Assembly (NCBI GenBank): GCA_905178155.1
Contig: CAJINV010000007.1
Span: 606,358-670,357 of the forward strand
Direction of reading: 5' to 3'
Source: Amoebophrya sp. A120
Lineage: Eukaryota; Protista; Dinoflagellata
DNA: 64,000 bases
Shown one piece after another: positions 1-61,400 of this stretch. The notes beneath the pieces are model-generated. The model had not been told where the DNA came from and made no database searches. It saw nothing but the letters and a program-made list of their open reading frames with translations. How positions within the stretch are numbered: the first letter of the stretch is position 1; each line of letters begins with the position of its first letter. A program made the position numbers and the translations under genes.

Positions 1-631
1 CGCGCGGGTGGGTTGCTGGGCCAGGGTCTTGGGCCGTGGAGGAGGTTTTTCCTGCCTGATGCTGCCGCAGCTATTCGGGGGCAATCTCTGCATGCGCGAC
101 ATGTCTTTTTTCGTGTCAGCTGAGCGCCGCGGGTTCATGGACAAAACGCCCAAGCCGCCGCTATCCAATAAAAATCTTGATGTTGGGGCAGAAGTGATGG
201 AGTTTCATCTCTTGTGAAGACGAGTACAGAGACAGAGTAGCTCTGCATACACAAGAATAAAAAGGCCAAACACGCTGCTTTAAGCTGCAGCGTGGGCTGC
301 TTAGTACTAAATTTATGCAATGTAGTTCCGCATCGTTTTGCTTCGGTTCTTCTCCTTTCGGTACACTAAACTACAACCGAATCCGACGGTGTCACTGATT
401 TCCATCTCACGCACACTGCAAATGGTAAAACTGTTGCTGTTCTTCTGCAGACTCCAACTGAACTGTTTTTACACCTTTCACGAGGACAGCTAACTTCATT
501 CGCTCCACCACGACAAAGTAGATTTTTCCTTTCCATACCCTCCAGGCAAGGAGTATGACCGCGGCGGTGGGATTGCACTACAGCGGGCTATCATTGAGTG
601 GGACAACTACATCTTCGACACGGGAGTAAGC

Positions 632-3600
632 ATGCTGCAGAATGTGTACTACTCCGCCAAAGACGTTGCCGTTGGGGCTTTGATGCCTGGATCTTCTGCA
701 AATCAAGACGACGAAGCGGCGGGTGCTGCAACTTCAAAGTTGGCGCGCAAGCACCCGGAGAAGCGGAAGAAGTGGGCTGCGGTGACCCGGGTTGGGAACA
801 CCGATGGTGATGACAGCAAGAGCAACCCGGCGGACATGATCCCGCAAGACGCCGAGTTTTTGAATGAAGAGGGGACGACGAATGAAGCGGGTCGTGATTC
901 GAAACCGCGGAACTCTGACGACTCTACGTCAAGCCTTCAGAGGCATCTTCACTCAGCGTCCAGCTCCGCGCTGGAGAAGAAAAGCAAGGAGTTCTTGGCG
1001 GAGGAACAACAAGGTGCGAACGATGCTCGCGTCCGTGACAACGCTGATTCTGCTGGGCAAAATAATGCTGGGAAAAATGACGAACCTGAGTCCAAAGACC
1101 ATGATTACGATTCTTCGTGGGCTGGCAAAGTGTCGAGTTTCTTCCAAGCGGCCAGCGACGCGGTAATTGGAAGCTTTTTCCAGGTGGGAACCGCGAAAAC
1201 TACTGCGGAAAGTAGCGGCGACAAAAATCTTCACCAGAGCAAGGAGCGAGATCAGCAGCTGCTCCCGCAGCAGTCCTTTCTCGAAGAAACACTGCCACCC
1301 ACGAACAACATTGGCGTAATATCGACGCCGGCTCCGCAGTTTTCTCCGATTGGTTCGCCTTTGTTGGTGCCCGCAGGAGAAGGCACAACACCGTGGGAAC
1401 CTGCCTCTCCGGAGACTGCTTCGGGGGGGTTTCTCGAGCAGGTTTCGAGCGTGTTGCAGGCGGGGACTGATGCGGTTGGAAGTTTGTTTCAGAGAACCAG
1501 TGCGGTAGTGGGGCTTTCACCGGGTGATCATCAGCATGCACAGGTGGAGCAGGAGGCCGAGCTCTCTGTGAAGACGACCAGCACGACAGAAACGTCGCCT
1601 CATCCGCCGGCGCCGCGTGCGGAGGGTTGTCCGTCAGACGATCAAACTGTGGCATCAAGTGTATCGCACAGAAAAAAGCTAGCACTTCTCAACAGTGGTA
1701 AAAACGCATGATGCGTAATATCGAAATGCAGTTGCAATTGCACGCGAAAGACAATAAATACAATAGTTCAAAAAGATTGTGTTTGTGACGCGCACGGCCG
1801 TCGCATGACACTCTGCAAGACTGGTTTTTGTTCAGCACGGCTTGTCTCTTTTCTACTGAAGTTGAGATGCTAGTAGTTATATTCTGTACGATAAAACCAA
1901 AACGAAGCCGTGTTGACGACAGCCACAACGGAAACGTCGCCGCACCCGCCGGCACCACCTGCGGGAAGTTTCACAGAGCTGCGAAAGGACCGCGCGAAAC
2001 CAAGTTTGGATCCCAGTAAGAACGAGAATGCCAACGCGGACCAGGAGCTACGGACGTACAAACGCCACATGGGTGCTGCTATCGAGAAGGTGAAGGGGAT
2101 GGATCGAGCGCGGCGCAAACTGCAACGAAAATTGGAGTACCCAGAACTACGTGAGTTTGTCCAGTTGCGGGAAAGCAGGGCGAATAAAGAACAAGAAGCA
2201 GAGCGTGCAAATAAAGCAGGCTCTGAGACGAGCGGAGAGCGAGGACCAAGTGATCATGCAGAACCAGCAGCAGCGGGAAACGCAAATCTGACTCGTCTTC
2301 AGGTGGAGATGTGCAAACTCGGGCCCAGCGTTGCCGGGCTGGTTCCCATCGAGCATTTTTTTGTCACGTTTTACAAAGAAAATTCACCGGTTGATGTTGG
2401 TGCCCAAGCCGCCAAGGGCCATACCCGTATCGTGGTTGCGGAGTATGAGGGAAGCGGTTTGGATATCGCCACCCTGGACCAGCTTGACCACGAGCAGGCG
2501 GATTCGAGTATTTCCATCTACCAGGGCAAAAGGCGGAAGTACAGCAGCATCAACAATCCGGGGTTCTTTGGCATTGAAACGTGGACGGACGACTTGGACG
2601 CCTATAAGGAAAAACCTGAAGAGAAGAAGAAAAAGGCAAAGTCCCTTATTTGTTTGGGCATGGTCCCTGACAGCACCCCCCAAGCCGCATTGATACAACG
2701 ACAAGGTCTGGGTGATGAAATTCCTTATGATGTGGGCACCTCGGGTCCGAAACAAAACGAGTTCAGGTTATACTCATTCGATGATCCTGTTGAGATTAAG
2801 GACCTGGTTGGGCTTGTGGGTCAGACGATGGGGTATGGGTGGAATGAAGATTACTCACTCAAGGGATCGCAACTGTCAACACTTTGTAAATGCGATTGTG
2901 AATCTTTTTTCTCCGCGACGGTACAACATATCTGTGCAGACACGAGCCCTGTCAAACACGGTACTAAATATCGTAGTGCCAGATCATGTGGTACCTGCGG
3001 AAAGGGTAGACACTGACGGATTGAGAAACCAGCTGAAAAAGAATTTGCTCCATCTGCTGGAGACTCTCCGTGATACAGTTACAGTTCAGGAAAAACATTC
3101 GCAAGGTGGGAGTACCAGTGGAATGCCTGCAAAAAGCAAAGTTCCACTGCACAAGCTTTGGAAGGACGAAGAAATGCGCAAGTTTGATCAGCTGCTTGAA
3201 GAAAATAAGCTCTCATATGAAAAAGGGGAGAAGATGGAACACGAACGAGAAGCGATCTCCGTAGTGGCTGATCCGCAGTTGATGACTCTGTTCGGTAAAA
3301 TAGTCACAGAATCAGAAAAGTCACTCCTTGCGCAGGAACACACAGAAGCATCAGACCACGCTCCAGTCGACGAGGACAAGAAGAAGCTGGGTGTTTATGC
3401 TCACGCGATGGACACAATCTGTCGGGCTTCAAGTGACATGGTGCGGGATCGTTTGAAATTCGCACCAGATCCGAGCGCAATAAAAGTGCAGCGCCGCTAT
3501 GCGTGCGAACTTTCCCGGGCTATGCGGACGGCAATTGAATCGGACACGGCCGAAAGCAGATTGGAAAGATTTGCCGCTGATGACAAAGCAAGGGAGAAAA

Positions 3601-13600: not shown

Positions 13601-16600
13601 ACGCGATCGACGAGCTCAGGTTTGTGAATGCATATCGCGAGAAAAAAGTGTTACAGTTACACACTCTGATGGGAGACAAGCAAGACAGACAACTTCTGTC
13701 ATGCAGGAAATGCATGCCAGCCTCATTTCATTCGTGTTTTCCCTTATGGTCTGCGCATCACAGGTTTTCTTAGCCATGTCGAGCAACTTTGTGATGCAGA
13801 AACTCCAACAAATGTGTAATTGTAACACTTTTTTCCTGTGATAATGCAGATGGAATCATGAATACGGCAAGTGGTGAAAATGATGCTAGCAAAAATTCCT
13901 CGCCGTTGAAAATCCACTACATCGAGGTGGAGCCCGCCGTGGGGTATGAAAGTGCACAACTCCCTTTCCCCCTCATTTGTGATGCAAAGTGCCAACGCCA
14001 CCCTTTGCCTTTTGCCACGACTATGCATGACAGATTTTGAGAGCCGAAACAGCAACAGAATCGGTCGCCAATTTTTTGTCATGTAGAGCCTGCATCCTTG
14101 CCAGAGCTTGTGTTGCTGGGACTGCCATTCAAATGAGGCGGGGGGGGAGTTGTGCAGCACTCTCATATGGGGTTCGGCGAGCTCAAAACCGGTTCGCAAT
14201 CGTTTTTGCTGTTCCGGGATTTGCTGCAAAGGAAGTGGGTGGAGGACTGTCAGGCGATAGTGACTTCTACGCCGGAGAATGAAGTCTCCAGTACCAAGAA
14301 AACTGATCCAAAATCTTCCAACCTCATTTCGAGCAAGAAACACGAGAACAAAACCAACACTCCACTTCTGAAGAAACGCAACAGAAACGACGACTCCACC
14401 TCTGAAGACTCGGAAGATCTGGACCGCTTGGATTCGGACGACAGCACGGATAGCATTTCCTCTACTTCCGCAGAGAGCGACGAGGATGCCGAAGCTGTTT
14501 TGAAAAGCCGCATGAAAAAAATGAAACCAAAGAACAGGAAAAAGAAGCACAAAAACCACACTGGTGCGTCATCAAAAGGAGATCGCTCTACTAGCACAAC
14601 TGCGGACCCAAATACTGAATCAGCTGGTTCACCGCAAACTAACAAGCCGAAACTCGAAGTCCCACCCCTTCGCTCCATTTTCCACCTGTTCCACCGCATG
14701 TCGGCGCTGGCGAAAATCGCGACTTCCGAGCACAAAACGACTTTCGACAACCTCCAATTTCGCTTTCAGATAAAAGATTCAACGACAAAAGAAAACAACC
14801 AGCACGAAGTAGACAGCACACAGCAACAGCACACGGAACTCATCCCCTTCTACAACGAGTACGACATTGCGAACTCTTTAAACAACAAAAACCAGTTTGT
14901 CGAGCTGATGATCCTGACCCCGAACGGCGCGATTGACGCGCAACGGGTGGACAAGCAGGCGAAAAAGTACTTGATTTCCCTCGATTTCGCGCTGAAAAAT
15001 GGGTACAAGATGCTGCCAGAGAATCTGATGAACAACTACCTGTCCCGGGATTTGATACAAAGACAAGCGTTTCTGGTCACGCGGTTCTTCTTTCTGGCGC
15101 CTGGTACTTCTTCGGAGCAACACGAGACGAAGCGGAGGAGGGACAACGAATGGGTAGATTCGGCGCTGGACGCGTTGGAGTTATCCTGTGCAAAGGCATC
15201 GTACTCGTACTAATCGCAGTCATGCAAGACAAATTTCTTGTTTAACCTAAGTCAGCATGACAGATTCCATTTGTCATGCTGAGCGAATTTGTATTGCAGT
15301 ACTACGAGTACGATACTTTTGCAGTTCATAGGAGTTGGTGGATGACGATTTTGTCCGTTTCGCGACCGAGATGCAATTTTTGCTCGCACTCTGGGGACGG
15401 ATGCTGCTGGGCGGTGGTGGGTTTGGGAAGCATGACGAAGGGACGAATAATCCTCCGGTTATGCAGAATTTCGTCGCTATGTTGGATGACAGTAGCGACG
15501 GATTCGCTTTGCCAAGTTTAAGAACTGCTGCTACGCAAGCTGTTTCTAGCGAGGAGGCTGTAGAGGTGCCACTGCGCGAAGCAGAAACGTCGCATGCTGG
15601 TGCGGGAACATCGATACAGCAAGAAGATCAACACCACACGGAGGTAGAGGTAGTGGAGAAACCACTTCTATCGAATAAAGCGGACGACGAGGTTCTTCTT
15701 CTTCCCGTGACTCCGGATGCAGTGTCGGACGAGTCTGCAGCTTCACATGATGATCCTGTCGCGGAGCAGCAGTGGGTGCAGACCCATCTCACGTTCGACG
15801 AAATCCAAACCGAGGACGAGTTCAACAAGTACGTGCAACGAGAATTTTTCGACAAACTTGAAAACGGAAATACAAATAACACGATCAGTACAACTTCTAG
15901 CATCAAACCAGAACTGCAATTTCTCCCATCCGTCATGAAAGCATCCGACCGACTTCCGGCCTTCCTTCCCGTGGCAGACGTAGTTTTTGAACCTGAAGAA
16001 AGCCATAGCGAAGCAGACCTGCATAATCCGCCCTCTTTGCTGCAACGAGCTACAAGTTTCCTTTCTGCTACCGTATTTGGACGAACAAGCGCTCCAACCC
16101 AAATTATCCACCCGCTGGAGATCTCCCTGGCTAACGGCGCGAAATTGGACATGTTTGATGTCGCAATGCGTTCCCCACAGTACTTCTTCGACGAGACTCT
16201 GTGGGCAGTGGAAGCAAATTTGGGCCTCGATGACGCGGTCAAATTGGAACTGATACAGCCCTTGAAGATGGAACAAAATAAGACAGCAGCTGCAGAAGGC
16301 CGCGAGAAAGAACATCAGAAAGAACTCTACAAGATTGCGTGTTTGAAGCCGGTGTTCGAAATTGAGGCGGACAAAACGCAGCGGTACACGCTCGAGGTGA
16401 TCATCTTGGACTTTTTTCAGTTCGACCATGAAACCGGGCCGGGCAATGCAAATCCTTGTTTTCGTCATGGTCATGCAGAAGCAGCGACTGTGACCGCGAC
16501 ACCCACGGCAGCAGCTCCGGTTGTAGCGGTGCCGCCGCTTCTAGACGGTGGTCATTTGATGAACGACTTGTTTATTTCCGATGGTGGAAGTGATGTTTCT

Positions 16601-23327: not shown

Positions 23328-26300
23328 ATGAACCAGCGGAAGAACCCCTTCGCGGGGGGCGGGCTCGGCGGCCGCGGACAGCACGGAGGTGCCAAACACG
23401 GGAGTCAGCATGACGAAAACCAAAATGACGATGAGAATCAAAACAACCCAGGAGACGGCAGTGGCTCAAACAATTCCGGCAATTTGCTGGCCGAAACGTT
23501 CTATCAACTGCAAAAATGTCTGGGTCTGGAAGGTTGCAACGTGTCATGCTAAATCTGAATCAGGCAAAATAAAAAACTGTGTTGCATAATTGCCAAAAGT
23601 TGTGCACTTTTGACCTAACCGAGAGGCAGTTTCTCATGCAGAATAGGCATTAGAACGGTCTCGCGGAATCTGTCATGCTATGTCCTACATACCAGACGAG
23701 ACCTCATGGGTTATGCGAAATATGCATGACAAACCTGGTGGCAATCTTCCAGACCCAGACATATTTGCAGTTCATACCTTCTCCATCGAAACTCGGTTCA
23801 ATGAGTTCTTCGACTCCCGCCCCGTCATGCTGTCGATGGCCTGTTTGACCGTATTTGTCTTATGGGGTGACGACCTTCGGTTGTACGCGTTTCCGAAAGA
23901 TTACGACCCGGTCTTCTACACCTTTTTCCTCATGGCCTTTCTCATTTTCTTTTTCGAGTTTATGGGGAACACGATCTGCAAGCCGGGTTACAAGGGCGGG
24001 TTCTTCTTCTGGCTGGATTTGATCGCGACATTTAGTTTGCTGATCGACATTCCCTGGGTCCTGGCACTGATCGAGAAGTTAATCGCGAGTAGTTCCGGGC
24101 AGTCGGACGACGAAGAATCGGGTGCAGCGTCGATCTATGCATTGCAAATGTGTCTGGGTCTGGAATGGTGTGAACTTGTGATGCGCATTTCACAACACAC
24201 ACAAATCTCTGATGCGTAGGCAGCAAAAGATGCCCACTTACTGTCACCAAAATGGAGGATTTGTCATGCGGATTCGGCATTGCGGAATCTTCTCGAAACC
24301 TGTGATGCTAGGGCTTCCATGCCAGAGCTTCTGTGTCATGCAAACACAGCACGACAAAACTCTGCAGTCTTCCAGACCCAGACATCCTTGCATTTCATAC
24401 GATCAACTCCACGGTCGCGACGGTGCGAACTGCCCGGGCGGTGCGGCTCGTGCGGTTGATCCGGTTGGTGCGAGTGGTGAAGCTGTGGTCCATGGTACGG
24501 AAGGCGAACGAGTTTTGGGAGTGTCAGGATTGAAATCGTCGAATTTGAAATACTAGTTTGTCATGCATAGAATACAGCCCACAAAGTGCCTGTCTTGCAG
24601 AGTAGGCAAGTGAGGTAGATCGTAAGCTTGTTGAGGGGTAGAAACTGAGCTGCTAAAGTAGGATGACAAAAGGCGTCTTCCTTACCCAAACAGCATGAGA
24701 GAAACTGGATTTCGGCTCTACCCAAATTTGTCATGCGCCACTTGGAAAGTGGGTTACAACTTTCATCCATTTTATGCATATACTTACAAACTTTGTCGGT
24801 TTCAATCCTGACACATCCATACGAATCCCAAACGGACGAGATGCTGCAGCAGCAACAACGGAATGCGCAGAACGCGAAGCAAGCGGCTCTGAAGCGGGTG
24901 GAGGCAAGTCGGTTGGGGAAGTTGTTGTCGGAGATGACGACAAGACGGGTCGTCGTCATGGTACTGATGATGCTCTTCGTCTTACCGTTTCTCGACCCGG
25001 CGGATTTGGACAACTCCAAAGTGTTCGGTCTCTCGCTCCTGTTCTGGTTCGGCCGCAGCTGGTGCGACACGAATCCAAGTGGTGCGACATCTTCAGGTAG
25101 TTCCTCTTCCTCCTCCTCCGCGGCTTCTTCCAGTGACCACTACGGGTGTTCCGAGTTTCAAACGGAAAACTGGCTTTTTCTTGACGGGTGGCGGCTATGA
25201 CCTACTCAAACGTTACAATCTCAAACGTTGCAATAGAGTCTGGAATTTGTTGTCTCGCATAATGAGCATGACAGACTCGCAGACCATTCCACTTTCTGCA
25301 ACACAAATTTCGGCAGATTGTAGTCTGGTTTGGGACTCCGGAACTTGTCATGCGCAGTCCTATGAGACTTGGCTAGATCATGCACTTCTTGCATGACAGA
25401 TTTGCAAGTTCTATTGTAACGTTTGAGATTGTAACGGTTGAGCAGGTCATAGCGGCACCTGGTGTTTTCCTATTCGCAGCTCAGCCGGGACCGCTATGAA
25501 GTGCAAATATGTCTGGGTCTGGATGAAAAGTGGAACTTGTAATGCGTGTCTTGCATTTCTGGAAAATCTTCTGTGTTGCATGTGTAGCAAAAGAGGAGCT
25601 TCCACCTTTGTCATGCAAAAACGAGATTTGTAATGCGTGCTAGGCATCAACCGGCGTCTGAAAAACTTGTCATGCTTGGCTGCCATTGCATTTGCAAGCG
25701 CCTCCGTGAACATGCGCGACTCAGCATCACAGGTTTCCAGACCGAGACAAATTTGCATTTCATAACCGGTACGCAAGCACGACTGCGGACCACCTGAAAC
25801 TGACCGAACCGCTGCTGTGGTATGCATTGCAAATATGTCTGGGACTGGAAGGTTGCAACTTGTGATGCTGTCCTCACATTCCAAAAGGATTGGTAGTGCA
25901 GGAGCAGCAAGAGAAGTCCAGTTTGTGCTACGTGGGGAAGGCATTTCTCATGCGGAATTTTAGAAATCTGTGATGCTAGATCATGCATTACAAGCATCGC
26001 CGGTCATGCGAAGTATGCATGACAAACGTGGCAATCTTCCAGACCCAGACATATTTGCATTTGATATGTGGCTGCGGGTCCCCAATTGGGCGGACGGGGG
26101 GAAGATGAGCGACATCGCGTCGGTATCAATTGCAAAAATGTGGTCTGGGTCTGGAAGAGTCATGCTGCTTTTGCATGACACAGAAGGCCTGCCATGGAAG
26201 TTCTAGGATCACAGGTTTCGAGAAGCTTCCGCAAAAATGCCGAATCCGCATGACAAATCCCCCATTCTGGTGACAGAAAGTGGCCAGCTTTTGCTGCCTG

Positions 26301-29300
26301 TGCATGAAAGATTTTTATGGGTTGTAAAATGCGCATCACAAGTTTGCATTCTTCCGGACCCAGACACTTTTGCATTTGATAGTCGGTGGTAACGGACAAG
26401 GGCTCGTGGTACGAAAACGCGTTCTGCGGCCGGCTGTTTCTGGTCACGAACGGGGACCACTGTCCGCATCGGGAGGACGAACTCGAGGATGTGATTTACA
26501 TTCCCCCAAACACGGAGCAGATGATCATCGCAGTGGCCCGGTTTGACCGGTCGGAGTTTTCGCGGGAACAAGCAGCGGTCTCCATGCTGCAAACGTGTTT
26601 CGTGTGCATTCTCCTCGGTACGATGTCGATTCAGTTTCAGAACGACACGCAGTCACTCGTGATTCGGCCGATCGAAAAGATGGTAAATATCATCAAGCAA
26701 CTAGCGGAGGACCCGCTAGAGCCACCGAATCTTGACGAAGACGGAGAGGAGAATGGGAACGGCAGTGCAAGTTCTATGGGCGGCGGTGGTGGCGGCTCTG
26801 GTGGGGGAGCAGGGGGGAATAGCGGTGATGGGAAAAATATCGTGTGCAAAAGTATCGCATTCGTATTGCAGTCGTGCATTATAAATCTTTTTCTTAAAGG
26901 TAAATCCGCATATCAAATTCCATTACTCATGCTGAGGAAATTTGTAATGCATTCATACGAGTACGATACTTTTGCAGTTCATAAAAGAGAAGAAGAAGAA
27001 AAATAAGGGGCCACAGCTGGAAACCACGATGCTTGAGAACACCATTTTGAAAATCGGCGGATTGTTGCAGGTACAGAAGTTCTTACGTTTTTGAAGATGT
27101 CTGCACGCATGATTGGCGCAAGGAGGTGATCACGATCAGTACCTAGACCCGTAAAGAGAGCATGCGCATGAAAATGATCCCTCCCCAAGTAGTTCCTGCT
27201 TCTTTCTTTCGAGAGCCGCTATAGAAATCACCTCGAAATTTTACTTTACTTAGGTTGGTTTCGGCGAGGCCGGTGCACAGATCATCGGGAAGAACATGTC
27301 ATCCGGCGACGGCGAGCTGAATATCATGATGCCGGGGTCGAAAGTGGAGTCCATTTTTGGTTTCGTGGATATCCGGCAGTTCACCGACACGACAGAGTGT
27401 TTGGAGGAAGACGTCATGGTGTTTGTCAACTCCATATCAAATGTAAAAATGTCTGGGTCTGGAGGAATGCCACTTGTTATGCTGCATTTGGATTCCAGAA
27501 AAATCTGTATTGCATGAGTACCAAAAGGAATGTAATTTTTGCTACACGGAGAGGGCATATGTCATGCGCAATAGGCATCAAGAAGCTCTGAAAAAATCTG
27601 TGATGCTAGGGCATGCATCACAGACATCAGGGCTCATGCAAAACGTGCATGACAAGTGTCAGAATGTTCCAGATCCAGACATTTTTACAGTTGATACTCC
27701 ATCGGCTACATTGTGCACAAGTGCGTCCACCGCTGGTCTGGGGTGGCGAACAAAAACATCGTACTCAGACGAAAAGATCTCCCCTCCCCATACTGAAAGC
27801 GCATCCGTGTGAAAATCTGTGATGCAGATCTGTGGCCACAAATCCTGTCTGTCTTGCAAGAAGGCAAACCCAGAGAGTCCGCCGCATTATGCAGGCGGTT
27901 TGTGATGCTGGTCGGCTTACAGCGTCGACATCTGTCATGCCAGTCTCCTACATCAAAACCTTGCGACTCCGGCTTGGCATATGCCTGCAGTCCTCTCCTG
28001 CAAGACAAATTTGTGTACGGAAATGCAGCATGAGAAACTTCGTTTTGATATCGGGAGGGGGGATTTTTCCTTTTGGTACATCGGGGACGCCTTCCTCGTG
28101 CTGTGGAAGATTCCGGACCGGAACAGTTTCGGGTCAAATGGAGGGAGTAGTGGTGGGCTGTTCGGGTCCCACGGCTCGGCGGGGAGCAGCCAGCTGCAGG
28201 TAGCCGACATTGCGGACCGGAGTTTGGTAACCACTGCAAAAGTATCGTACTCGTAGAACCTAATCCCAACACTGTGTGCTGCTGACAATATTATGTCCTC
28301 CCTACTGAATCCAGATCAGCATCACAAATTCTTCTATTAGTATTTACATTGCTTGACTTCCGGGTTCTGGTACGGCATACCCCCGGCGAGAGGTGACCTT
28401 GACAGGTGACCTCGACAGGTGACCGTGACAGGTGACCTCGACAGGTGACCTTGACAGGTGACCTTGACAGGTGACCTCGACAGGTGACCCGGACAGGTGG
28501 CCACGACAGGCGACGACGACAGGCGAAGCGAGAGGTGAAACGAGAGGCGACGCGACAGGCGAGGAAAGAGGATAAATCACAGCTGAGGCCAACACCTACG
28601 CGCGTTTCGTTCTTGACGTGAAAAGCAAATATTTGCGACGCAGAAAATGAAAAAGATAAAAGGGCAAAGACACAAAGAACTGGCCCCACACACAAAGACG
28701 TTTCTGCGTCGCCATGAAAAAATAAAAAAGCGCTTACTTCTGCAACCAATGCACGCCCGGGAGACCGTCTCCCGGAGACGGCTGCTTACTTCGCCTCCGG
28801 AATCGGGAATGAGTTGCGCATCAATATTAGAGAACTTCTCTTCAGCAGCCGGGCAGAGATATCGCCTTTGCTTCTATTTCATTTTTGTCTTGCAAAATGC
28901 AGGCACCTAATTCATCCTTTTGTTTTGCCAATAGCGCACTAAGCCACCATGCGCGCGCCTGGTGTGAGGCGAGGGGCGGACGCTGTCCGCCCCGAAGGCG
29001 AACACCCTTTCCCCACTAGCGCCACTAGGGACGGGCACAAGGCCCCAGCGTGGGGACCCTGTCCCCACGCGTGGGTCTTGTTTTTCATGCTGCGCAAATT
29101 TGTCATTCGGTGCTGGCTACTAGAACTATCCAGTGCGACACTTTTGCAAAAATGCATATTTGTTCGCGTTTCTCAAAATCATCGCTGAGGCAAAGCGGTC
29201 CGAGCGCATCAAGTCCTTCGCGAGTCACCCCCGGATCATCCAGAAATTTGGCAAAAACTGTATAACCTGCTCAGGTGTTACAATCTCAAGCGTTACAATA

Positions 29301-32300
29301 GAATATGGAAATCTGTCATGCAAGAAATGCATTATCTACTTAGCCAACTCTCGCAGGATTGCGCATGACAAGTTCTGGAGTCCCAAACCGCGCTGCAATT
29401 ATCTGGCGTAGTTTGTATTGCGGAAAGTGGAACGCTGTCCGAGTCTGTCATGCTCATTGTGCAATACAAAACCCGGACTGTATTGCAACGTTTGAGATTG
29501 CAACGTTTGAGCAGGTCATAAACTGCGAGGTCTGCCGGTTTGGGCTTGGGCTGCACGTCGGGTGGGCGATCGAAGGTCCAATATCCTGTGTAAAAACGCC
29601 CTTACCCCAAAGTTAAGTTGGGAATTTGGCAAGACAAGTCGACCATCTTTGGGACTCACGCATAGCAAGTTCTTTGGCTTCTACGCAGTGCAGTCGTGCC
29701 TAGCTAGGTCAAACGCATCACAGATCCAGTCTGGCACCCTGATTAGCGCATGACAGGTTTTTCCCAGATGCCACTAGGTAATGCCTCTCATAGAGTGAGC
29801 GGCATGACACACATTCTGAGCATGCAGATCTGCATGACAGCTATTGGGTGGGGAAGTTTCTCCTCAGGGTATCCAATCGGCAGTGACTACAAAATCGACG
29901 CGAGTTACCTGAGTCCGCACGTGAATATCACGATGTCGCTGGAGGCCTGGACGAAGATTTACCTGGTGAATCTGCTCCTGTCCGAGCCACTGTACCTCTT
30001 CCTGTCGCTGAAGGCCAAACAACGGTGTCGGAAGATCGACATGGTGAGCATTTCGACGGACATATGCAATGCAAAAGCATCGTACTAGTACAAATTGCAT
30101 TACAAAGTAGCCCACCATTACAAATTGAATTTGTAATGCTGATTTACCCTGAGAAAGAGATTTGTAATGCATAAATGCAATTAGAATTACTACGAGTGCG
30201 ATACTTTTGCACAGGATAGGACAATGCTAGTAGCAACGCGACAGTGGTCTTGTCCACTTCTACTTCCGGAGCAGGAACGAGCTCGTCAGGTACCGGTGGC
30301 GGCGCCCAGGACGCGGGTGGCGAGGGCGGAAGTGGTCTTGCTGGATCTGTTACGAGTCTCGGCGCAGGAGGAGCAAGTGCGGCTCCGACTAGAACCGCAT
30401 ATCACAGGAAAAAAGTGTTACAGTTACACATCTCTTGGAACTTCTGCATCACAAATTTGCTCTGCATGCCGAAGAAAACTTGTAATGCGCAGACCATAAG
30501 GGAAAACACGAATGGAATGAGGCTGGCAATTGTTTCCTGCATGACAGAGGTTGTCTGTCTTGCTTGTCTCGCATGAGAGTGTGTAACTGTAACACTTTTT
30601 TCTCACGATACCGCGGGCGCGCTGTTAAGTAGTTCCGGTTCGGTGTTACTGGCATCTGGTGGCGCTGTATCAAGTGCAAATATGTCTGGGTCTGGAAGGT
30701 TGGAACTTGTGATGCTAACTTTGGACTCTAAAAAAAACTGTATTGCATGACCAGCAAGAGGAGTCTAGTTATTTGCGCTACGCGGGGAGGGCGTTTGTCG
30801 TGCGGCGTAGGCATCAGGAAGCCCTCTAGAAATCTGTGATGCTAGGTCGTGCATTACAGACGTCCTGGGTCATGCAAAACATGCATGACAAGTCTCAGAA
30901 TCTTCCAGACCCAGACATATTTGCATTTGATACGCTGGCGCGTCGCACGGGGCCGGGTCGTCAAGCACCAATGGGAAGCCGTTTGGGCTGTACACCTTTC
31001 CCATGGATGTCACCAACTGCGTCGCCACCACGCCGTATCAATTTCTCGAGCAGCACCGGTCGCCGGGCGACGTGTGGAAACCGGAATCATTGTCCGAGAA
31101 TGTCTATCAAATGCAGCTCAATATGTCGGAGTCTGGAAGAATGCAACCTGTGATGCTAAGTTTGGAATCTAAAAAAATCTGTAAATGCATGAGCAGCAAT
31201 AAAAGGAGTCGACTTGTTTTTGCTACGCGGCGAGGGCGTTTCTCATCATGCGGGATAGGCATCAAGAAGATGCCCGCAAAAAATCTGTGATGCTGCTGCA
31301 TACACCACAGACATCATGGGTGGTCATGCAAGGTGTGCATTTGACAAACCTTGCATCCCTCTAGTGACCACATTCATATTTGCAAAACTGCATAATGTCA
31401 ACACGGATGTTATAGAGATGCGCGACGGGGTGGAGTTTTTGTTCCTGATCGACAAAGTATGACAGTGCACATAGCTGCCCCTCCCCCTCATTCGTATAGC
31501 ATGAACGGCAATACAAGCATCAGCAAGAGTGCCGGTTTTGCATGACAGATTTGCACCGGAGTATAGTGCTATTTGGGCTAGTGCCAGAACTTGTCATGCA
31601 TAATAGTGACAGGAGGGAAAGCGTGGATTTGGTAGTTTGCATGAGAAATGAGAACGAGTGGGAGTTGTGCACTTTCATACAAAGACGTGCATCTGCTGCA
31701 GAAAAACGTTCCGGGTTTTGATCCAGACCTGCTGCAAGTCAACTGCTCTACGCAGCTGGAGGTGAAAGCGAAACAGAGAATATGCAAACAAAAAAAGTGT
31801 TACAGTTACACATTGTGTTGCGGCAAGCCCTGTCATGCCGGATATGCACAAGAACACAATTTCATGAGTGTTTTCCCTTGTGATCTCTGTCATGCAAGGC
31901 AAGTTCGTCTTAGTGAGCCGAAGGCACTACAAATGTGTAAACTGTAACACTTTTTTTGTGCGACAGCGCAAAGCGCTCAGCTACTACCTCGCGGGCGATT
32001 GGCGCTTGGCCAGGGAGTATTACGAGGATTTGCTCGGGAATAGTAATTCCCAGTCAGGAACAACAGCAAATAAGGGAAAAAATAATCCTGATGGAGGTAC
32101 TAGTGGTAAAAACACTTCTTCAGCATCCCAAGCCGGTGGTGGAATGATGTCAGATGGCGACCAAAATAAACAAGCACCGGGAGTTGTAGATTCTGAGAAT
32201 GAGGATGCCAGTGACGCAATCTCCAAGTCTACGCTTTCCAATGTGACCGTGAGCACCGCCGGTACGCTTGGAACAACAACGACGACGACAACGGCGGCTT

Positions 32301-35300
32301 TGAATCTAAATCAAAACAACAAAAAAGACCACGACGGCGTAGGACCACGAACAAATAGTAGTAGAAACAAGGGGGAGCAGCCGAACAATAATGCGAAAAC
32401 CACGACTGGCACTGGGGTGGATACCTGCGCTCAAGTGGTTTACGAGTACATGAAATCGTTCGAGTTCGTATCTAGATGGAGACCAGTTCATCTCGCATCC
32501 ACTTGGTGTCATTGTGTCAGTGCAATAACCGTTGCGTTTGGCATGATGCGCTAATGTCGGCTTCTCAGATTCAGGATCAGTATCCAGTTACATGCGGCAC
32601 AGCTACACTGTTTGCTATGACATATAGACCATTATGCGAGACGTCGCTTGATTCGTGTTGAACTTGAAAGCTGGCAGGACTCCACGCAAGACGGCTATGC
32701 GATCGTGAGAAAACGGCGCCAGGCCTGACCCCAACAAAAGAAGGGCACTGGCAGCGGCTTCTCCCACAGGCTGGGCGCACTGTTCATGGCCCCCCGCTTG
32801 CTTGGCTCGCCTCGCCTGACACTCACAAACGACACGTAGGACGACCCGGCTATCGCGCACTTGCATACACCTGCCAAAGCCCCCGCTAAAGATTGCAGGC
32901 CACTGCCTCCGGGGGTGCTTGGGTTGGCTAATTTGCCTCCTTGGCAGGTCGCGTCCTGAGGGGGCGGGCACACTGATGCCGGTGTGCTGCCCCAAAGAGC
33001 CGAACCAGCGGCGCCACTTTTCTAAAAGTCGCGGCCCCGGGCCTCCGCGGATTCTTGGGATTCTTGGAAGAAACACGCACCCGCGGGACCCCTAAAAGGG
33101 GTTTTTTCCGGAACCCTTGTAGCAGTGGGGGAAGCTTCCAAAAGTAGTGCTTTTGGGTACCCCTCCCGGAGGGTCCTCGGAAAGGCTCGCGCATCACGGA
33201 AAACCTTCCGTCTTAGAAGCCCCGGGCACATATTTCCATAGGGGCGCAGGCCTTCCCCGACTGCTTCTGGGCGATGCTGGCATAGGCCCAAAGACCTGCC
33301 CGCGCTAGAGGTAGGCAGCAAAAGGCGCAGGCCGCCGGTGCCTACCCCTGGTTCGCCTTTTTCCAGTGCGCCCGCCTCCTGCAGTTTGTGTCGGCTAAAT
33401 CATGGCGCAAAACACTACGGCCTTGAAAACTCCCCACACCAAAGACACTAGCGGCTATTGTTATGGATGCACTGCCGCCTGCAGGCTTCGCGCGGTGAAG
33501 TTGTGCCGCATGTGGCTGCGCTACTGAAGCGCGGCCCGCCTGGTTCGGCGCCCACTGCTTTATGCAAAAGCAGGTATGCGTTCGCGCACAGGGAGGGCGC
33601 ATCCGCAAAGCCTTCGCCACGAACGCGGGCGCGCCGAGTCGATGGGAAACCAAAAACGCGGCCCAATGTTGCGCGGCATCGTCGAGGTTTGCCCAACCTG
33701 TGCAAGGCCTCTACTTGCTCGAAGTGTGCCCGCGCGGCGGGGCATGCGCATCACCAACACATAGGGGCGCGCCCCTTGGTGCACTTCGGGACGCCGTGGC
33801 GCCTCGCCAACAGCGAATGCCACGCGGCGGGCCCTCCACGAAGTGGGTCCCGGAGGAGCTTGACGTGGCCAGCCTCCAAGCTGATAGACACAGGCCCTGT
33901 GGGAACGGGGCGCGATGTCTTCGAGTGTCGCCCAAGTGCTCGGAACCCAAATCGTCATGCGAAAAAAAATGCATATCAAAATTTTCAGCATACTTGAAAA
34001 AAGCGTCGTTGACGCCACCATAATTATGCGAGACGTCGCTTGCTTCGTGTTGAACTTGAAAGCAAATTCATTGCCAATTATCATGCTGGCGATTTGTATA
34101 CGCAGAAACGAACAAGGACAAAGGAAAGCGCTCCCTTTGTCCTTCGAAGGTTCCAGCTGCCGCTCGTGGGAGAACAAAAAAGCTGTAACCTGAGTAAAGA
34201 TTTTACTCAGGTCCGGTGGCCTGAGTAAACTAAAACTTTTACTCGGGTCCGATGGCCTGAGTAAAATCTTCATCGGGAGGGGTCATGAGGGGCAGGGCCA
34301 TGCCTAAAAAATCTTTCGCGGGCGATCGGGTGGAGAAAGCCCGCTGAAAAAAAAAAAAACTTTTGGGGCTTCCAAGCTGCATTGTCTCCAGAGACCTTTT
34401 CTCTTCTCGACCCTCCCAGTCCATGGAGAAAAACCCGGCTGGAAATTCAAAAAGTTTTCAACTTCCCAGCGGCATTTTCTCGAAAGACTTGCGCGGGAAA
34501 GATTCTTGTCGACCGCGTCCATGGAGAAAAGCCCGGGTGGAAATTTAAAAAGTTTTGAACTTCCAAGCGGGATTTTCTCGAAAGACTTCTCGGGAAAGAT
34601 TCTTCTCGACCCAGTCCATGGAAAAAAGCCCGGTTGGAAATTTCCAAGGCGGTTTTTCTTCGCCCGCAGACTTTACATACTCAGGTCCGGTGGCCTGAGC
34701 AAAACTTTTACTCAGGTCGCGTATCCTTCGTCCTTCGTTTCTGCATTTGTAATGCAGGAATGCAGGAGAAAACATACCATAGCACGGCTTTCCAACTTTG
34801 GAAAGTTGTAGCGCAGAGGTGAAGGACCACTAGGACAACAGAGAGTCAAATTAGTTGAAGTGGCCATCTCAACGTTCCTCCGATGGAGGAAAATTGAAAG
34901 AGCCACGTCAACAGTTTGTCCTTCGTTTCTGCAGTAGCATTACACATTGCCAATCATGGCTTCCCCCCGGCCACATGGCCGCAGGCCTGCGCTCGCTGGC
35001 GAACGAGCGATTGATGGAGGGACGCGGGGACGGGGTGGCGGATCAGCGACCGGTGATGGAGGAGAGCGAAGACGATGGGACGGCTCGGCGCAAGTTGTCG
35101 CCGGTTTGAGTAATGCTCAAAAAGCATGGATGCATCCCCCCCCTCCCCCCCCATTACTTGAATAATGGTCCGACTTTTGTTGGACAAGATCTTGTGAAAA
35201 GTAGAGCATTATGCGAGACGTCGCTTGATTCGTGTTGAACTTGAAAGCTGGCACAAAGAGGGCGGCTTAATTGAGCTACTCCATACCCCATCGCGCCGAG

Positions 35301-43502: not shown

Positions 43503-43764
43503 TATCAAATGCAAAAATGTCTGGGTCTGGAAATTTTCTAGACTTGTCATGCAGGTTTTGCATAAGTCTTGATGTCTGTGATGCGTGCCCTAGCATCACA
43601 GATTTTTTGAGGCCTTCTTGATGCCTATTCCGCATTACAAATGCCATCTCCGCGTAGCAAAAATTGCATTCCCTTTGCTGCTCATGCAATGCAGATTTTT
43701 TTGCCATCCAAATGCAGCATCACAAGTTCCAACCTTCCAGACCCAGACATTTTTACATTTGATA
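43503..43764. mobile_element. Introner family A at the stop codon/3' UTR, reverse orientation relative to the 40977 copy
   Basis: Family A TIRs; TSD tgatt includes the TGA stop. Confidence 0.93.
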
Positions 43765-48219: not shown

Positions 48220-48457
48220 TTGTTCGCCAGCATCACAACTGCAGCATATCATCCTGATTGGAGCATGACAAATTCCGAAATACGAATAGAAAATGCTTCT
48301 TATGGGGCTTTGCATGAGAAACATCATCTTCAGCATGCAAAATTTCATTACAAGCATGGGGTGGGGACGTTTTTACAAAGGATAGACACGCCGCAGTGTT
48401 CTTCTTGAGGCAATTTGTTATGCGAATCATACGGATGCGACCCTTTTGCATTGCATA
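48220..48457. mobile_element. Orphan right halves of a family H element (ends 48384) and a family B-like element (ends 48457)
   Basis: tggggtggggacgtttttacaaaggata and gcgacccttttgcattgcata, with no matching left TIRs. Confidence 0.6.
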
Positions 48458-48524
48458 CCAACTGCGTCGGACTTGTTCCCCTTTGCCCTCCTGAGCTGCT
48501 CCGCTTTTATAACAGCAGCGCGAG

Positions 48525-48811
48525 TATGCATTGCAAACATGCCTGGGCCTGGGAGAATGATCTTGCTTCTAATGCGTCTGCTGGATGACGCGCATGGTCT
48601 CGAATGCACGCAAAAGCATGCAACACAGGCTTTGCCGAGGCCTCTTGAAGATGCCTATTCCGCGTGATCAGTTCCTTAATCTTGTGTGTGCAGCACAAAT
48701 TGGGTGACTTTGGTTTTCATGCAATACAAATTTAAACGCCTCTTCGTCCAGAGGCAGAGTCCGCGCGACAAGTTGGAAATCTTCCAGACCCAAAAATATT
48801 TTCAAGTGATA
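48525..48811. mobile_element. Introner family A, diverged
   Basis: Family A-like TIRs; TSD gcgag/gcgcg. Confidence 0.85.
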
Positions 48812-48992
48812 GCGCGTTTTCCATAGTTTGGTTTTTTTGACGATGGTTGCAGCTTCGTCCACGTACTTCTGCGGAATCCAGGCGCACATCAGCTTGTGGA
48901 CATGTTCTACATCCGGGAGGGAACCATCATACGACTCGGGACCGTAGGCGCGTGCTTCGGCGGGGGCGATCTGTTCATTAGGAGAATGGAAA

Positions 48993-49243
48993 GATTAAGG
49001 ATTTCCATTGCAGTTGCGCCATTTTGTTTGTAGATGCCACGGACCAAGCATCTCGTTTGTAGATGCGACCTCGCCCTGGCACGCAACCTTGTGCTGGCAA
49101 TGCGTGCATGACAAATTCCGGAAATCCAAACAGTACTACATGAAGAACTTGTCATGCACCGGGTCAATCTGTACTGGTGTTTGTAATGCTGTTGATGCCA
49201 TACAAATCCAAATGAGGGGCAGGGGGAGTTGTGCACGTTCATA
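48993..49243. mobile_element. Introner family C with eroded left TIR
   Basis: Intact right family C TIR; left boundary inferred from reading frame (ggaaa/tcaaa). Confidence 0.7.
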
Positions 49244-49435
49244 TCAAATTTTCGTCGTGGATCTTCGCCGCTTCCAGCACCTCATGGTCGATTTTCAGGC
49301 TTTTTTCATTCTCATGAAGGTCGTCGTTGTGGCAGGAGCTTAGCTGCATCGTGTTGAGATGTTGTTGGTCCCCTGCAGCCTCTCCTCGCGCGGCTGCCAC
49401 TGCCAGTTGTGCTACTGCTAAACGACGGACCTGGG

Positions 49436-49506: not shown

Positions 49507-49589
49507 CCTTCGTTCACCCCTGTCGTCCTCCGTAGCTTGTTCATCTCGTGCAAGCACCCCTATAAAAAGATATCTGACTTCAGTTCAAC

Positions 49590-55400: not shown

Positions 55401-58400
55401 TCCCTCTCCCGACGACAGGGAAGGACCAGAGGAAACGACGGAGAAAGTGCCATGCTGCGTCGACGGCGGTATTCAGGCAAAAACAGAAAAACTACACACA
55501 TCCTGTGCACCACTAGCACTTCCAGAAGATGCTGTGAAAAAGGATGACACGAAAAAGTCCCGGACCTTCGAGGAACCCACTGCATCGCCGATGCCAAAAT
55601 CTACTCCGGCTGCTGCGTCGAATGTTAAAGCGAAGAAGAAGAACGGGAACAAGAGCGGGACGAACAAGCAGGCAGAAGAACAAAGCAAAAGTTCTCGTAC
55701 GCAGATCGCGGCTGACATTTCTTCTCCTACGCGCCACCACACGACCAGCGAAGACGTGTTAATACAGGAAGAAGCCAGCACACTAGCAGGAGAAGAAGTC
55801 ATTGCCGTGAACGATCACGGGATTCCGGAAGTTTTGCCAGGATTGCTGTTTTATCAACTGCAAAAATGTCTGGGTCTGGATGAATGCATGTTCGTCATGC
55901 TTGTCTGGCATGACTCTTAAATCTGTCATGCACATTACCCAAGAGCCGGAGCCCCATTTTTCTGTCATGCAGAGACGCAGCCTGTCATGCAGAATAGGCA
56001 ACACCTGGAAGCTCATAAACTTGTCATGCTGAGCCAGCACTTGTGGCCTCCTCGTGATACGCCACTCAGCATCACAAGTTTCCAGACCCAGACACTTTTG
56101 CATTTGATATGTTTTCCTACAACAAAAGACTCCCACTGACCACCTGGGACGACCCGGTCATTGAGAGATTTTTCAAGGAAATCGAAGCCGAGGCCGAGAA
56201 GATCTTGAATCTGAAAACTTCCAAAAGCACACAGAAGGATATAACCCGCTCAGGTGTTACAATCTCAAACGTTACAATAGAGTTTGCAACTTGTGTTGCA
56301 TGATGCGCATGACTGACTCGCAGAGGGCTCCACTCTCTGCAATACAAATTTCGCCAGATTGTAGTGGGGTTTGGGACTCCGGAGCTTGTCATGCGCAATC
56401 CTATGAGAGTGGGCTAGAACATGCACTCTTGCATCACAGATTTCCATATTCTATTGTAACGTTTGAGATTGTAGCAGCTGAGCGGGTTATAAAGGACCTT
56501 ATCCGCAAGCAGCTGGCGGATAAGAACTACGCGAAGAAAACTTTGCAGGAGCTTTTACCGAAGGCGCGGTGGGAAATTCTAGAGGGAAAGGCACGGCTGG
56601 AAGAGTTTTATTCCAACAAAAAGAGGGAAATAACGGAAAGGCTGACCATTTCTGCACAACAGGGTGATGGACAAGAACACCAGATGACGGTAGACCAACT
56701 CTACGACGCGGCTGTGGCGGAGGCGCGGGATCTCAGCAGCGAGGAAATTGCGGAAAAGATACTAAGACCGGATGTCAAGCGGGCTTTCAGCAAAATTGGG
56801 AATGTCATATCTCGTCAGCGGAACAAAATCCTGCCGCGGGAGTCCGAGGTTATCAAGTATCGCAAGAACAAACTGTTTCACTGTGAACTTGTGATGCATA
56901 GAATGGAGCACAGAACGATTTGTCTTGCTACAGCTGCAAGACATCGGATTTTTAGGCGTGTTTTCCCTGCTTTGGAAGCACGCATGGCAAATTTTCTGTG
57001 TCATGTGTAACAAATTTGTGATGCAGATCTTGCAAAGCCATCACAGTGAAACAGTTTTTTCGTGGGATATCAAGACGGGCGTTTTTAAAGAAGCCAGCAC
57101 CGGGTTGTTGATGTGGGTGGACGTGTATCAAATGCAAAAATGTCTGGGTCTCGAAGAATGCAAGTTTCTCATGCTTGTCGGGCATGACTCGAGAATCTGT
57201 GTTGCATAAAGCACGAAGAAGCCCTCTTACCTGTCATGCAAAAACGCAGTTTGCCATGCGGAATACGTAAGACATGGCAGCCAAAAAATTTGTCATGCAT
57301 AGCTGCGTATTGCAGTGCGTCTATCATTCACTTTTAGCATTACAAGTTTCCAGACCCAGACATATTTGCAATCCATAACGTGGCGGGCAGCAGCGCAGAG
57401 AAAAGACAGACGAAAGCGGGTCTGCAAAGCATGATGCGGGGGAGGATTGTCGTTGAGGTAGACGAAGCGGACGCGGTTTGGTCGAAAGAAAGGATGGAGG
57501 AACGGAAGCAAAGACGGACGGAAGTGGCGTTGGAAGATTCAAAGGTCCAAGAGCAATTGCAGCTGAAAGAAGCGCCAACTACAAAAGACCGTACAACGGC
57601 CCGCGTGGAGCAGCTACAGGCTCCAGCCGACACTACTTCTGCGCACCACGCAGTAGAAGAACCACGGGCAGATGAAGGCTCTGTTGCGGCAGCACCTAGA
57701 AGGGAAGCAGAGATGATGGTGGAGGCAGAGCCGAGTGCGATAAACCGTGGTGATGAAAAAATTGCTTCACAGGTGGACGTTGCTCCACAGGTGGACGAGC
57801 CGGGTAGAAATGTTCAACCACAACCATTACCACCTTCCGCAAGCACTCCTGTCGTCGCACAACTTGGGAAGAAGGCGCAGAGGAAGGCCAAAGCGAAGGC
57901 CCGAGCGAACAACGGCGAGAATAATAACCACACAAATAAATCCGACACAGCTCCTACAACCGCTGCAGACGGAGCTACAGCTGAAGGATCGGAGAGTATG
58001 ACGGGACCACCAACAAAAAAGAGCACAGGTGAAAAAAATCAAATCCGCGAAGTAGTACCTACAAATATGAACAAGCACGGTTTTCCGGAAACCCTTCCCG
58101 CGTTGCTCTATTCTTACGAGCGGTTTCTCCCCTTAACCAGTTGGGACGATCCGAAACTGACGCAAATTTTAGCCGACATCGAGGAACACGCCAACCGGAA
58201 TCTGGGGCGCAAGACCAGCGCTTTGGGGCGCAGTTTGGCGGCGCAACACCAACAACTTCTAACGGGGGCGCAGCAGCAACCAGGTGGAGGTCAACACCAG
58301 CTCGCCCAGCAATGCCGGGGCGGACTCCGGGGGAGCTTCGGGAGCAGCGTGGCGACGAGACAGGCGTTGTCGGAGAAACACTATGCTCAGAAGACGATTG

Positions 58401-61400
58401 ACAAATTACTCCCCGAGGCGTACGCCGAAATTGAAGAGCAGAAAAAGCGGCTTCTCGCGTTTAACAAAGAGCACAGCAAAAAGGGAAAGCGAAACGAACT
58501 CTTCACGGAGGAAGAATTTGTGCAGATGATTCTCGCGCAGGAGAATGGCGGTCCCCCGCGGGCCTACGAGAAATTTGGCAACAAACTGGTGCGCGTGAAC
58601 AACGATTCGCTTACTGGCTGCGACACGGAACTAATCCCAACCGGGGTGCTGAAGGAGAGACAAACCGGGCTTTTGATGTGGATGGATATCAAAACGGCCA
58701 ACGCAACAAGGATTCTGACCAACTCGACCGTGACCACCCTGGGCGGCACGTTGCGGGTTGAGAGGGACGAGTCGGATCCGGTGGAGCTCGCAACGAAGAT
58801 TGAGTCGGTGAAAGACGTATCCTGCGCAAAAGTATCGTACTCGTATTGCAGTCATGCATTACACATCCTGTTCTTAAGGTAAATCAGCATTACAAATTTT
58901 ATTTCTCATCATGCTGAGTAAAGTTGTATATGCATTTATACGAGTGCGATACTTTCGCAATGCATAAGACGGGCGGAGTAAGGAGCACGTGTTGGTGGAG
59001 CAAGAAGATGTTGTCGGAAAAAATCAATCTCCCGTTGTGCCAGAAATTCTTGCATCAGGAGCTGCATCCTCTTCAAATGCAAACCCGTGCTCTGGCTCTA
59101 GCTTCTCTGCGACACAAAGACAAGCGTCCCCCGAGCGAACGGGTGTTGTGGCCTGTTCCGGACAAGATGAAGTAGAAGCATCACAGCCTCTGCTGGCGCT
59201 GAAACAGGACGCCCCTTCCTCTGTGGAATCACCACCGGGTGTAACAACTGTGCCAACATCGTATGTCGCTAATCAGGAGCCAGTACAATGCGGCGGTACA
59301 ACAGCTGTGGCAGGAAAACTATCTTCTTCACCAGCAGTTGCGCATGCTGCAAGTCAGCAGGGTAGTAATACTCCCGTAAGATTACACGACGACCCCTCGT
59401 GTGGCAATACGCAAGTCATCAAACAACCCCCTCTCGAGGACGACCAGGAGCAGGCACAAGCAGAACTGCCGGCCGCGCCTTCTGCTGCAGAAGAATTGCA
59501 GTCGGTTCTAGCAAATGGAGCTGCGACAGAAGTGGGAAGGCACGACCTCGAGCACCATGAGCACCAGCATCACGGCACGCAGACAGTTTCACCCACTGAA
59601 GCCGAGGCGGAGGAGGATGCTTTGTCCGTGCAACTGGCTGCAAAGCTGTCGCTCAATGACACAACAGCTACTTGTCCTTCGCCGATTCTAGTTAATTCCC
59701 ATCATCATGAAAAAGATGAAACAACTTCTACCTCCGCACCACAAGCAGATGGCGAAAGATCGGTCCAAAGCAGGTCGTACAAGAAGCTCGGGTCTGTCGC
59801 GCGGTTATTTCACCACATTGGGATTTTCACCACGGTGCTCCCTCATGAGAAAGAACAAGAAATCCGCCGCTTCGAGAACTTCAGGCGGTCACTTGACGGT
59901 TATGACAGTGCACAGCTCCCCCCCCCCCTCATTTGTAAGTATGGCATGAACAGCAATACAAACACCAGCACACGTGGAGCCTGTACATGACAAATTTATG
60001 TGCCTGATGTAGTACTGTTTTGGCTTCCAGAATCTGTCTTGCAAACAGTGCCACAACGCACCGACTGGATTTGAGGTTTTGCATGACAAACGAGGGGGAG
60101 GGGGAGTTGTGCACTCTCATACCGGTTCTTCGAACAAACAACATCAAACTCTACTTCAGCAGTTTGATTTCTTCCGCGGACGGCAGGCCAACTACTGGAC
60201 ACTGACCGCTATCGAAACCTACTTGCGGTTTTTGGAGTACGAGCTAGAGAGGGAAGAAGATCAACATGCCGGAGCCAACTACTCGAGTCCTAACGCAACT
60301 GGTGCTGGTAGTCACGGAGCAGGCGCAGGTGTCGTGTCTCCTTCTGGTGGGAAGCAAAGCAGTTCGGGCAAGGAAGATGTGGGGAAGAAGAAGAGCCTTT
60401 TTGCTCGCCTAATCGGTAGAAGCAGCTCGTCTTTGGTGCGAACGACAAGGGGAGGCCCCTCAGGAGAGGATGCTGCAGTGTTGCGAAACACGGCGAAAAT
60501 AAACGAGGATATTCCCGCGACAAGTGCTAGGGCCGCTCCTGCGGCGATTGCAAGTAGCACGATGAAAACAGCGAGCAGGCTCTTGACCGAGAAGCACATC
60601 CGAGAAGCGCGCGAAGAGTTGATGCTGATAAAAAACCACAACGCCAAAAATTGTGCGGTTCAGGAGCATGACAAAGACCAGAAATTCCAGATTGTCGGCT
60701 GGACTAACTACCTGACCGAACATCTCCGCTTACCGTGGGGGGAGTTTGTGACCCTGTCCCAGGTGGAGGCATATCAAATGCATAAATGTCTGGGTCTGGA
60801 AACATGTGATGCTGGGTGTCGTATCATGATGAGGGCACAAGTGCTGGCTCAGCATGACAAGTCTCTGAGCTTCTAGGTGTTGCCTATTCTGCATGACAAA
60901 CTGCATTTCTGCATGACAGAAAAGCTGGGTATCCGGGTAGACCAGGGCCCCTGCTCAGACCAGGGCCCCTGGGACCAGGGCCCCCAGGACCAGGGCCCCT
61001 AGGACCAGGGCCCCTAGGACCAGGGCCCCTAGGACCAGGGCCCCTACGGATTGGGGCCCCTGCGGACTGAACGGCATCCCGGAATCTGGTACACGGCGCG
61101 GCGCGGCCGGAAGCGGAGATGTCTACCAGCGGATCTTCCAGTCGAAATAATCTGGGCCACCAAGTAAGTATGCATGTCATGGGACTCCTAGTATCTGGCC
61201 AGGAGGTAGAAGAAGGTAGGCCACAAGTAATATGGGACGCAGTCGGCTGACTACCCAGAGCATTTCTCTCACTTTCTAGATTCCTCGACGCGCGTCGGCG
61301 TCACAAGTTCTCAGTTGTGCAGACCCAGATCTATTTACAATGCAACGGGCATCGTTTTTTTTTGTAGTCAGCCACGTACTTGAGCTTCTCCGTCTGTCTT

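Follow-up and report, generated by a model that had tools for sequence, protein, structure and literature searches.

Oppositely oriented TAT...ATA introners in an Amoebophrya cyclase gene are missing from the gene product at a single register

The stretch of DNA analysed here, hereafter called the window, comprises 64,000 nucleotides (nt) of contig CAJINV010000007.1 of the dinoflagellate Amoebophrya sp. A120 and harbors on its plus strand a gene of the ion-channel/class III adenylyl cyclase type (23328..32554), which is interrupted by 19 introners, i.e. transposon-derived introns, and by a single canonical GT-AG intron (27071..27253, plus strand; present in the gene model and in the deposited protein P0002). 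If each of the 19 copies is taken out together with 5 additional nt, and the GT-AG intron is removed as well, 21 exons join to an open frame of 1178 amino acids (aa) starting at 23328, while with each of the 8 other offsets tried (0-4 and 6-8 nt) the frame stops by aa 64-214. P0002, an 1178-aa protein deposited for Amoebophrya sp. A120, equals this model exactly, at one register. The naming as a cyclase is based on relatives called class 3 adenylate cyclases and voltage-gated channel proteins and on precomputed domains; Pfam scans of the exon pieces and of P0002 gave no match above the cut-off. By the same removal rule, three further plus-strand genes of the window open into frames with lengths of 3093, 2423 and 740 aa. 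Left unspliced, each copy brings stops or a frame shift and no long protein results, and the frame is left intact by the removal even of the copies of 931 and 2180 nt.

The catalogue of the window holds 46 elements identified by a search and by eye, plus one decayed copy, which was added afterwards. Most of them measure 146-339 nt, start with TAT, end with ATA, have inverted ends of about 30 nt and are flanked on each side by a 5-nt direct repeat. Additional copies, here called outside copies, came from metagenome contigs scanned for a pattern that was seeded with a single end family, which led to at least 161 loci (L001-L161), all from a single other assembly. The matches listed at these loci contain 293 distinct elements, and the counts given below cover the 64-kb window and the 161 outside loci. 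Among the listed outside copies, 275 of 293 have TAT/ATA ends (the outer base was fixed in the finder), and when the outer base was left free, 578-580 of the 586 arms conformed to the inverted-repeat TAT at each position. The direct repeat is a perfect 5 nt in 227 of the 293, 4 nt in 2 and 6-8 nt in 0. [quoted passage not shown] For the comparison of copies we used 205 elements, 39 from the window and 166 from outside (173 of the 293 passed a strand filter, 166 of them with at least 3 matching repeat bases). Their interiors fall into 13 families and 13 singletons with 0 inconsistent edges and share no relationship across families; Rfam returned 0 matches within the window.

The initial annotation of this DNA, which was made from the sequence, had proposed that one introner subfamily works in both orientations within one gene, and this could be validated for the two focal copies. 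The copy at 24136..24399 (plus strand; family 0, majority orientation) has TAT...ATA ends, TIRs of about 30 nt and a perfect 5-nt duplication (24131-24135 and 24400-24404), and the copy at 26124..26381 (minus strand; same subfamily, reversed) is likewise flanked by a perfect duplication (26119-26123 and 26382-26386). Both lie in the plus-strand cyclase gene. A global alignment of the first with the reverse complement of the second gives 215/270 identities and a score of 274, compared with a score of -7 on the same strand. The relationship is not restricted to the TIRs, since after trimming of 35 nt per end 160/186 positions are identical with a local score of 242, compared with 19 on the same strand and no more than 26 in any of 1000 shuffles. 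The cyclase gene holds two more opposite pairs, one in family 9 (25196..25451, plus; 29261..29520, minus) and one in family 2 (26838..26983, plus; 30063..30218, minus).

Three further opposite pairs had been proposed. The family 3 copies at 13633..13843 (plus) and 30400..30610 (minus), named D copies in the initial annotation, are indeed opposite (192/213); they do not share one gene, since the first lies within the upstream 3093-aa reading frame and the second in the cyclase gene, both of which are on the plus strand. The family 1 copies at 55852..56109 (plus) and 60772..62951 (minus) are opposite and located in a single downstream gene, with 146/165 plus 85/95 identities and a nested insert of about 1.9 kb in the reversed copy, and the frame is open only with the whole 2.2 kb removed. 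In the insert itself (60935-62838), the ends are inverted and each has 15-nt tandem arrays close to it, a 96-nt tandem array is also present, and the longest stop-free stretch comprises 314 codons. The copies at 40977 and 43503 are opposite in sequence (232/264). Neither of them has coding surroundings (even the best frame holds 3 stops) and the duplication of the 43503 copy overlaps a stop codon, so that this pair says nothing on splicing. For the duplication of the 40977 element to match, the element has to start at 40973. The stop codon overlapped by the 5-nt duplication of 43503-43764 is that of a short Gly/Lys-rich frame, and the copy is likely to lie in a 3' untranslated region.

Next, we considered orientation across families. 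The host strand was assigned by a coding model, which was right in 35 of 36 leave-gene-out tests and concordant between neighbours in 76 of 80 cases; judged by frame continuity, the outside copies are probably introns as well. Both orientations occur in 10 of the 11 families with at least 3 members (pooled 117:71, window and listed outside copies), and for 86 of 192 copies the closest relative points the other way. The sole nominally skewed family is the largest one (49:29, p = 0.03). Neither orientation is strongly depleted, both being well represented over the families, and both are missing from the product.

Removal can also be followed in assembled contigs. The contigs of runs X1 and X2, which derive from one sample whose RNA label is a guess, skip the elements and add no other letters. 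X1 contig 2 is joined across the copies at 19264 and 21023. In X1 contig 4, the 141 nt between 25190 and 26382 equal the sum of three modelled exons (38 + 51 + 52), from which it follows that the reversed copy 26124 was skipped. The listed match of X1 contig 3 ends at 24130, the duplication edge of copy 24136, with the final 47 nt of the contig beyond the listing, and the join across this copy therefore rests on P0002. Contigs of run X5 (about 45x) continue into the elements. The raw RNA run X8 gave 214 partly fitting reads, none usable at this locus, and a protein search for the 42836 junction gave no match. From the contigs, P0002 and the reading frames we conclude that the elements are missing from the gene product in both orientations and that the net removal is the element plus 5 nt.

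The position of the cut within the duplication can be read where the two duplication copies differ, because the product then shows which base was kept; we denote by k the number of upstream duplicated bases retained. Contig edges keep the upstream base at position 1 (copy 19264), position 2 (23502) and position 4 (24514, 26838 and 31781). The copy at 24514..24821 (plus) has its mismatch at position 4, with downstream position 5 as the point where the contig picks up again, the mismatch of 26838..26983 is also at position 4, and the decayed copy at 31781..31965 (plus) has mismatches at 2 and 4. P0002 requires upstream position 4 (K533 and R984) and downstream position 5 (F689, which is F in the A25 orthologue too), the latter at the introner 28228..29158 (plus), which is enlarged to 931 nt by a nested insert with a 13-nt tandem array and whose duplication differs at position 5. 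Of the 6 possible registers, k = 4 alone gives 0 differences to P0002. In another gene, the deposited protein P0121 requires upstream position 3 and downstream position 5 at the decayed introner 1662..1893 (plus), i.e. it fits k = 3 or 4, not 0-2 or 5. All seven informative sites are concordant with an intron of the form N-TAT...ATA-NNNN, and we conclude from these few sites that there is one fixed register, which leaves 4 bases of the duplication on the upstream exon and 1 on the downstream exon. Within the transcript the cut is polar, lying 1 nt beyond the 5' arm and 4 nt beyond the 3' arm. The excised intron of copy 24136 would accordingly be 24135..24403 (plus), with the register borrowed from other copies because its own duplication is perfect, and that of the reversed copy 26124 would be 26123..26385 (plus; X1 contig 4 and P0002). 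At k = 4, the intron phases in the window are distributed 17/5/14 (p = 0.04).

At the mapped register, GT...AG borders are found in 6 of 207 copies. None of 12 registers examined over the 207 copies is enriched for GT/GC...AG ends, and the best counts (62 G[TCA] starts and 55 AG ends) occur in different registers. The bases at +1 and -1 can be any base, with A 64, G 62, C 43 and T 38 at +1, and the direction of duplication mismatches revealed no trend and no drift toward GT or AG. The initial annotation had regarded all necessary signals as symmetric, naming the TIR stem, the TAT/ATA ends and octamers on both strands. This holds insofar as only the symmetric ends can be necessary signals. For the octamer T[GC]T[ACG]ATGC it fails in the focal pair, since copy 24136 has 5 sense and 0 antisense matches and copy 26124 has 0 sense and 3 antisense.

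Part of this picture is already known. The elements correspond to the introner elements of A120 described by Farhat et al. 2021 (PMC7789003), with which they share the organism (P0002 is identical), TAT inverted repeats, short direct repeats, a length of about 240 nt and non-canonical borders. The accessible text of that paper gives repeats of 3-5 nt and splice positions relative to the hairpin that are variable or unknown, whereas we find a 5-nt duplication and one register and have counted the orientations; it already contains the hairpin model, and the four uses of the word "orientation" in the text examined all refer to genes. In the 21 of 58 A120 rows seen of the family tables of Gozashti 2025 (PMC12130899), splice-site and duplication calls are mixed and no register is fixed. 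The introners of Polarella glacialis and Aureococcus anophagefferens (Roy et al., bioRxiv 10.1101/2020.10.14.339549) are, according to the portion consulted, also TIR transposons that form introns either way, with a bias for one orientation, but their GT/GC/GA and AG (GH/AG) sites come from the element or the duplication, in contrast to the rarity of GT...AG in A120. The nonconventional introns of euglenids and diplonemids (PMC4770533, PMC12621601; excerpts) share non-canonical borders, an inset end-to-end stem, a longer 3' overhang, direct repeats and a proposed MITE origin. In the unrelated euglenids, pairing runs from +4/-6 with CAG/CTG and purine/pyrimidine border preferences, whereas in A120 it runs from +2/-5 with TAT/ATA and no border preference; neither CAG/CTG at +4..6/-8..-6 nor a purine-started intron and exon characterizes the A120 copies. 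In the non-canonical introners of Fritillaria borealis (PMC13326754, PMC11282704; excerpts), transposon ends likewise serve as splice sites and the U2 spliceosome is credited, but AG-AC/AG-AT ends are preferred and U1 is retained, while in A120 the terminal bases are free and U1 is undetected. Literature searches found no report that A120 introners insert both ways or are cut at this register; figures (S19-S25 by legend) and subscription papers may contain one. Introners working two ways and the idea of a hairpin are hence known already; the fixed, signal-free register and the lack of a signal of selection on the stem appear to be new.

To explain the removal, we favour, at a probability of about 50%, a modified U2-type spliceosome that reads the element ends only, with N|UAU as donor and the stem as an aid. 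N|UAU would serve as donor with +1 free and U+2 and A+3 kept, and the 3' cut would be set by how far it lies from where the 3' arm ends. The stem formed by the arms, overbuilt rather than finely selected, would join the ends and substitute for the undetected U1, and inversion would be harmless because the inverted repeats recreate both ends. Canonical donors keep U at +2, and among the 6 registers within the duplication k = 4 alone places the fixed U at +2. Among 184 coding copies, T+2 has changed in 1, which has a weak coding score, and A(-5) in 5; this is a hint only (p = 0.22). In the accessible text on A120, U2, U4, U5 and U6 are reported as present and U1 as undetected (PMC7789003), Fritillaria sets a precedent for the removal of transposon-derived non-GT/AG introns by the U2 spliceosome (PMC13326754), and fixed distances between branch point and acceptor occur elsewhere (10.1101/2022.06.08.495308).

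Several observations weigh against a spliceosome of this kind, or limit the data on which it is based. In 41 of the 43 in-gene copies, the arm duplex beats all 100 shuffles, and the donor would thus sit hidden in double-stranded RNA. No branch adenosine appears to be obligatory, since A(-7) is G in the copies 27762 and 29582, both of which are missing from P0002, and A(-5) varies. The composition of the 5' and 3' arms in host orientation does not differ, and no sequence polarity was seen between them. For position 5, the register depends on a pair of deposited proteins with exon borders taken from transcript alignment; both have GT at that register, which could reflect a preference of the annotator, and at the opposite end AG is present in neither. 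Copies that inform on the register do not occur in both orientations within any one family. The contig support for removal, X1 and X2, is the one sample with the guessed label, and the spliceosome as catalyst is what we infer from sequence. A yUnAy branch motif at -7 in the 3' arm was considered and not retained as an obligatory signal. Each of the two adenosines, A(-5) and A(-7), varies, and in the listed cases one always remains.

The initial annotation had instead taken the symmetry to argue for hairpin-guided excision. This does not follow: whichever way an element is inserted, its TIRs also place one and the same linear sequence at either end, and introners that work in both orientations through conventional splice sites have been published. 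Such a euglenid-like, non-spliceosomal pathway, in which an endonuclease and ligase or another factor at the stem base would cut 1 nt before and 4 nt after it, seems to us possible but clearly less probable than the modified spliceosome. Both focal copies are predicted to fold end to end (z -3.6 and -4.2), and at least 15 arm pairs are predicted in 200 of 205 copies on the sense strand and in 199 on the antisense strand, which would fit a hairpin substrate; inverted repeats fold end to end in any case, and folding therefore does not show that the stem is used. Also in line with it are the unconstrained bases at +1 and -1, the fact that 4 of 5 changes of A(-5) go to G with a U.G pair retained, the TAC...GTA ends of copy 27762 and the comparable stagger of euglenid introns, which pair from +4/-6 (PMC4770533, excerpt). 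On the other hand, four tests for selection on an RNA stem were null. Transcribed-strand arms show no excess of G.U over A.C (151 vs 152), pairing at arm positions 4-8 is no better than for arms shuffled within families (0.607 vs 0.625), core pairing does not differ between coding and non-coding copies (0.873, n = 173, vs 0.856, n = 26; p = 0.82), and stability is no higher on the sense strand (109 vs 95). Among coding copies, core pairing drops with the age of the duplication, from 0.887 to 0.819 in copies with decayed duplications. Arm positions 9-26 covary beyond shuffles, but the families pool subfamilies and transposition predicts the same. Finally, the two remaining in-gene copies (162-537 and 31105..31394, the latter on the plus strand with arms predicted to pair poorly) have duplexes in the shuffled range, yet are missing from the deposited proteins, the second from P0002. 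The stem is long and may simply be overbuilt, and the tests for selection on pairing may therefore lack power. Within the arms, positions 4-7 pair poorly (0.35-0.74), between the paired terminal 3 bp and a core of about 19 bp, and their alleles follow the left or right end of the element itself, not the host strand.

It is rather unlikely that the spliceosome instead uses an internal polar branch signal, for which the octamer with its UnAU core, present on both strands in most copies (163 of 205), could be considered. Sense matches outnumber antisense matches in 102 vs 65 copies (p = 0.005) and the three most skewed families have a majority orientation that is octamer-sense; these copies are not independent, though, and the excess shrinks to 79:57 outside the window (p = 0.07) and to 93:68 in interiors alone (p = 0.06). 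Moreover, a sense octamer is missing in 18 of 205 elements, and the copies 26124 and 29582, which have no exact one, are still missing from P0002. The octamers face inward from both arms, a layout that would fit subterminal transposase-binding repeats, and we regard the octamer as a candidate for a common transposase-binding site. It is common to families with unrelated interiors (204 of 205 copies), compared with 4 matches in 20 kb of exon. An artefact, in which reverse transcriptase jumps across hairpins at direct repeats or elements are cut from DNA, is very improbable: a hairpin with a direct repeat is a known template-switching substrate and the RNA label of X1/X2 is guessed, but every unspliced copy has stops or a frame shift, the informative sites share one register where jumps would scatter, the X5 contigs enter the elements, and RNA-seq support for the introns has been reported (PMC7789003, accessible text).

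Stated without a catalyst, and held slightly more tentatively than the modified spliceosome, the results suggest a ruler-type pathway that would remove any TAT...ATA insert in either orientation, with any interior and at any target, by measuring 1 nt outward at the 5' end and 4 nt outward at the 3' end, with no need for GT, AG, U1 or a fixed branch point. Such a pathway would silence every insertion and restore the exon exactly, and could be run by a spliceosome that has been rebuilt or by an enzyme of its own. It would explain how large the invasion has become, because neither a target sequence nor an orientation is needed. How Amoebophrya removes tens of thousands of non-canonical introns with no U1 detected is put as an open question in the accessible text of Farhat et al. 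(PMC7789003); the fixed register and the independence of orientation leave as signal a few terminal bases and perhaps also the stem, which makes the mechanism testable. A fixed register would also let annotators set intron borders by rule.

Elsewhere in the window, the copy at 162-537, which is missing from P0121, is a strongly decayed TAT...ATA element, and suggests that "singleton" non-canonical introns are old introners. At 48230-50020, nested and truncated introner pieces are tangled together with no clear coding frame. A GC-shifted block with repeats (32470-35240) begins near the end of the cyclase gene and is possibly a larger mobile element.

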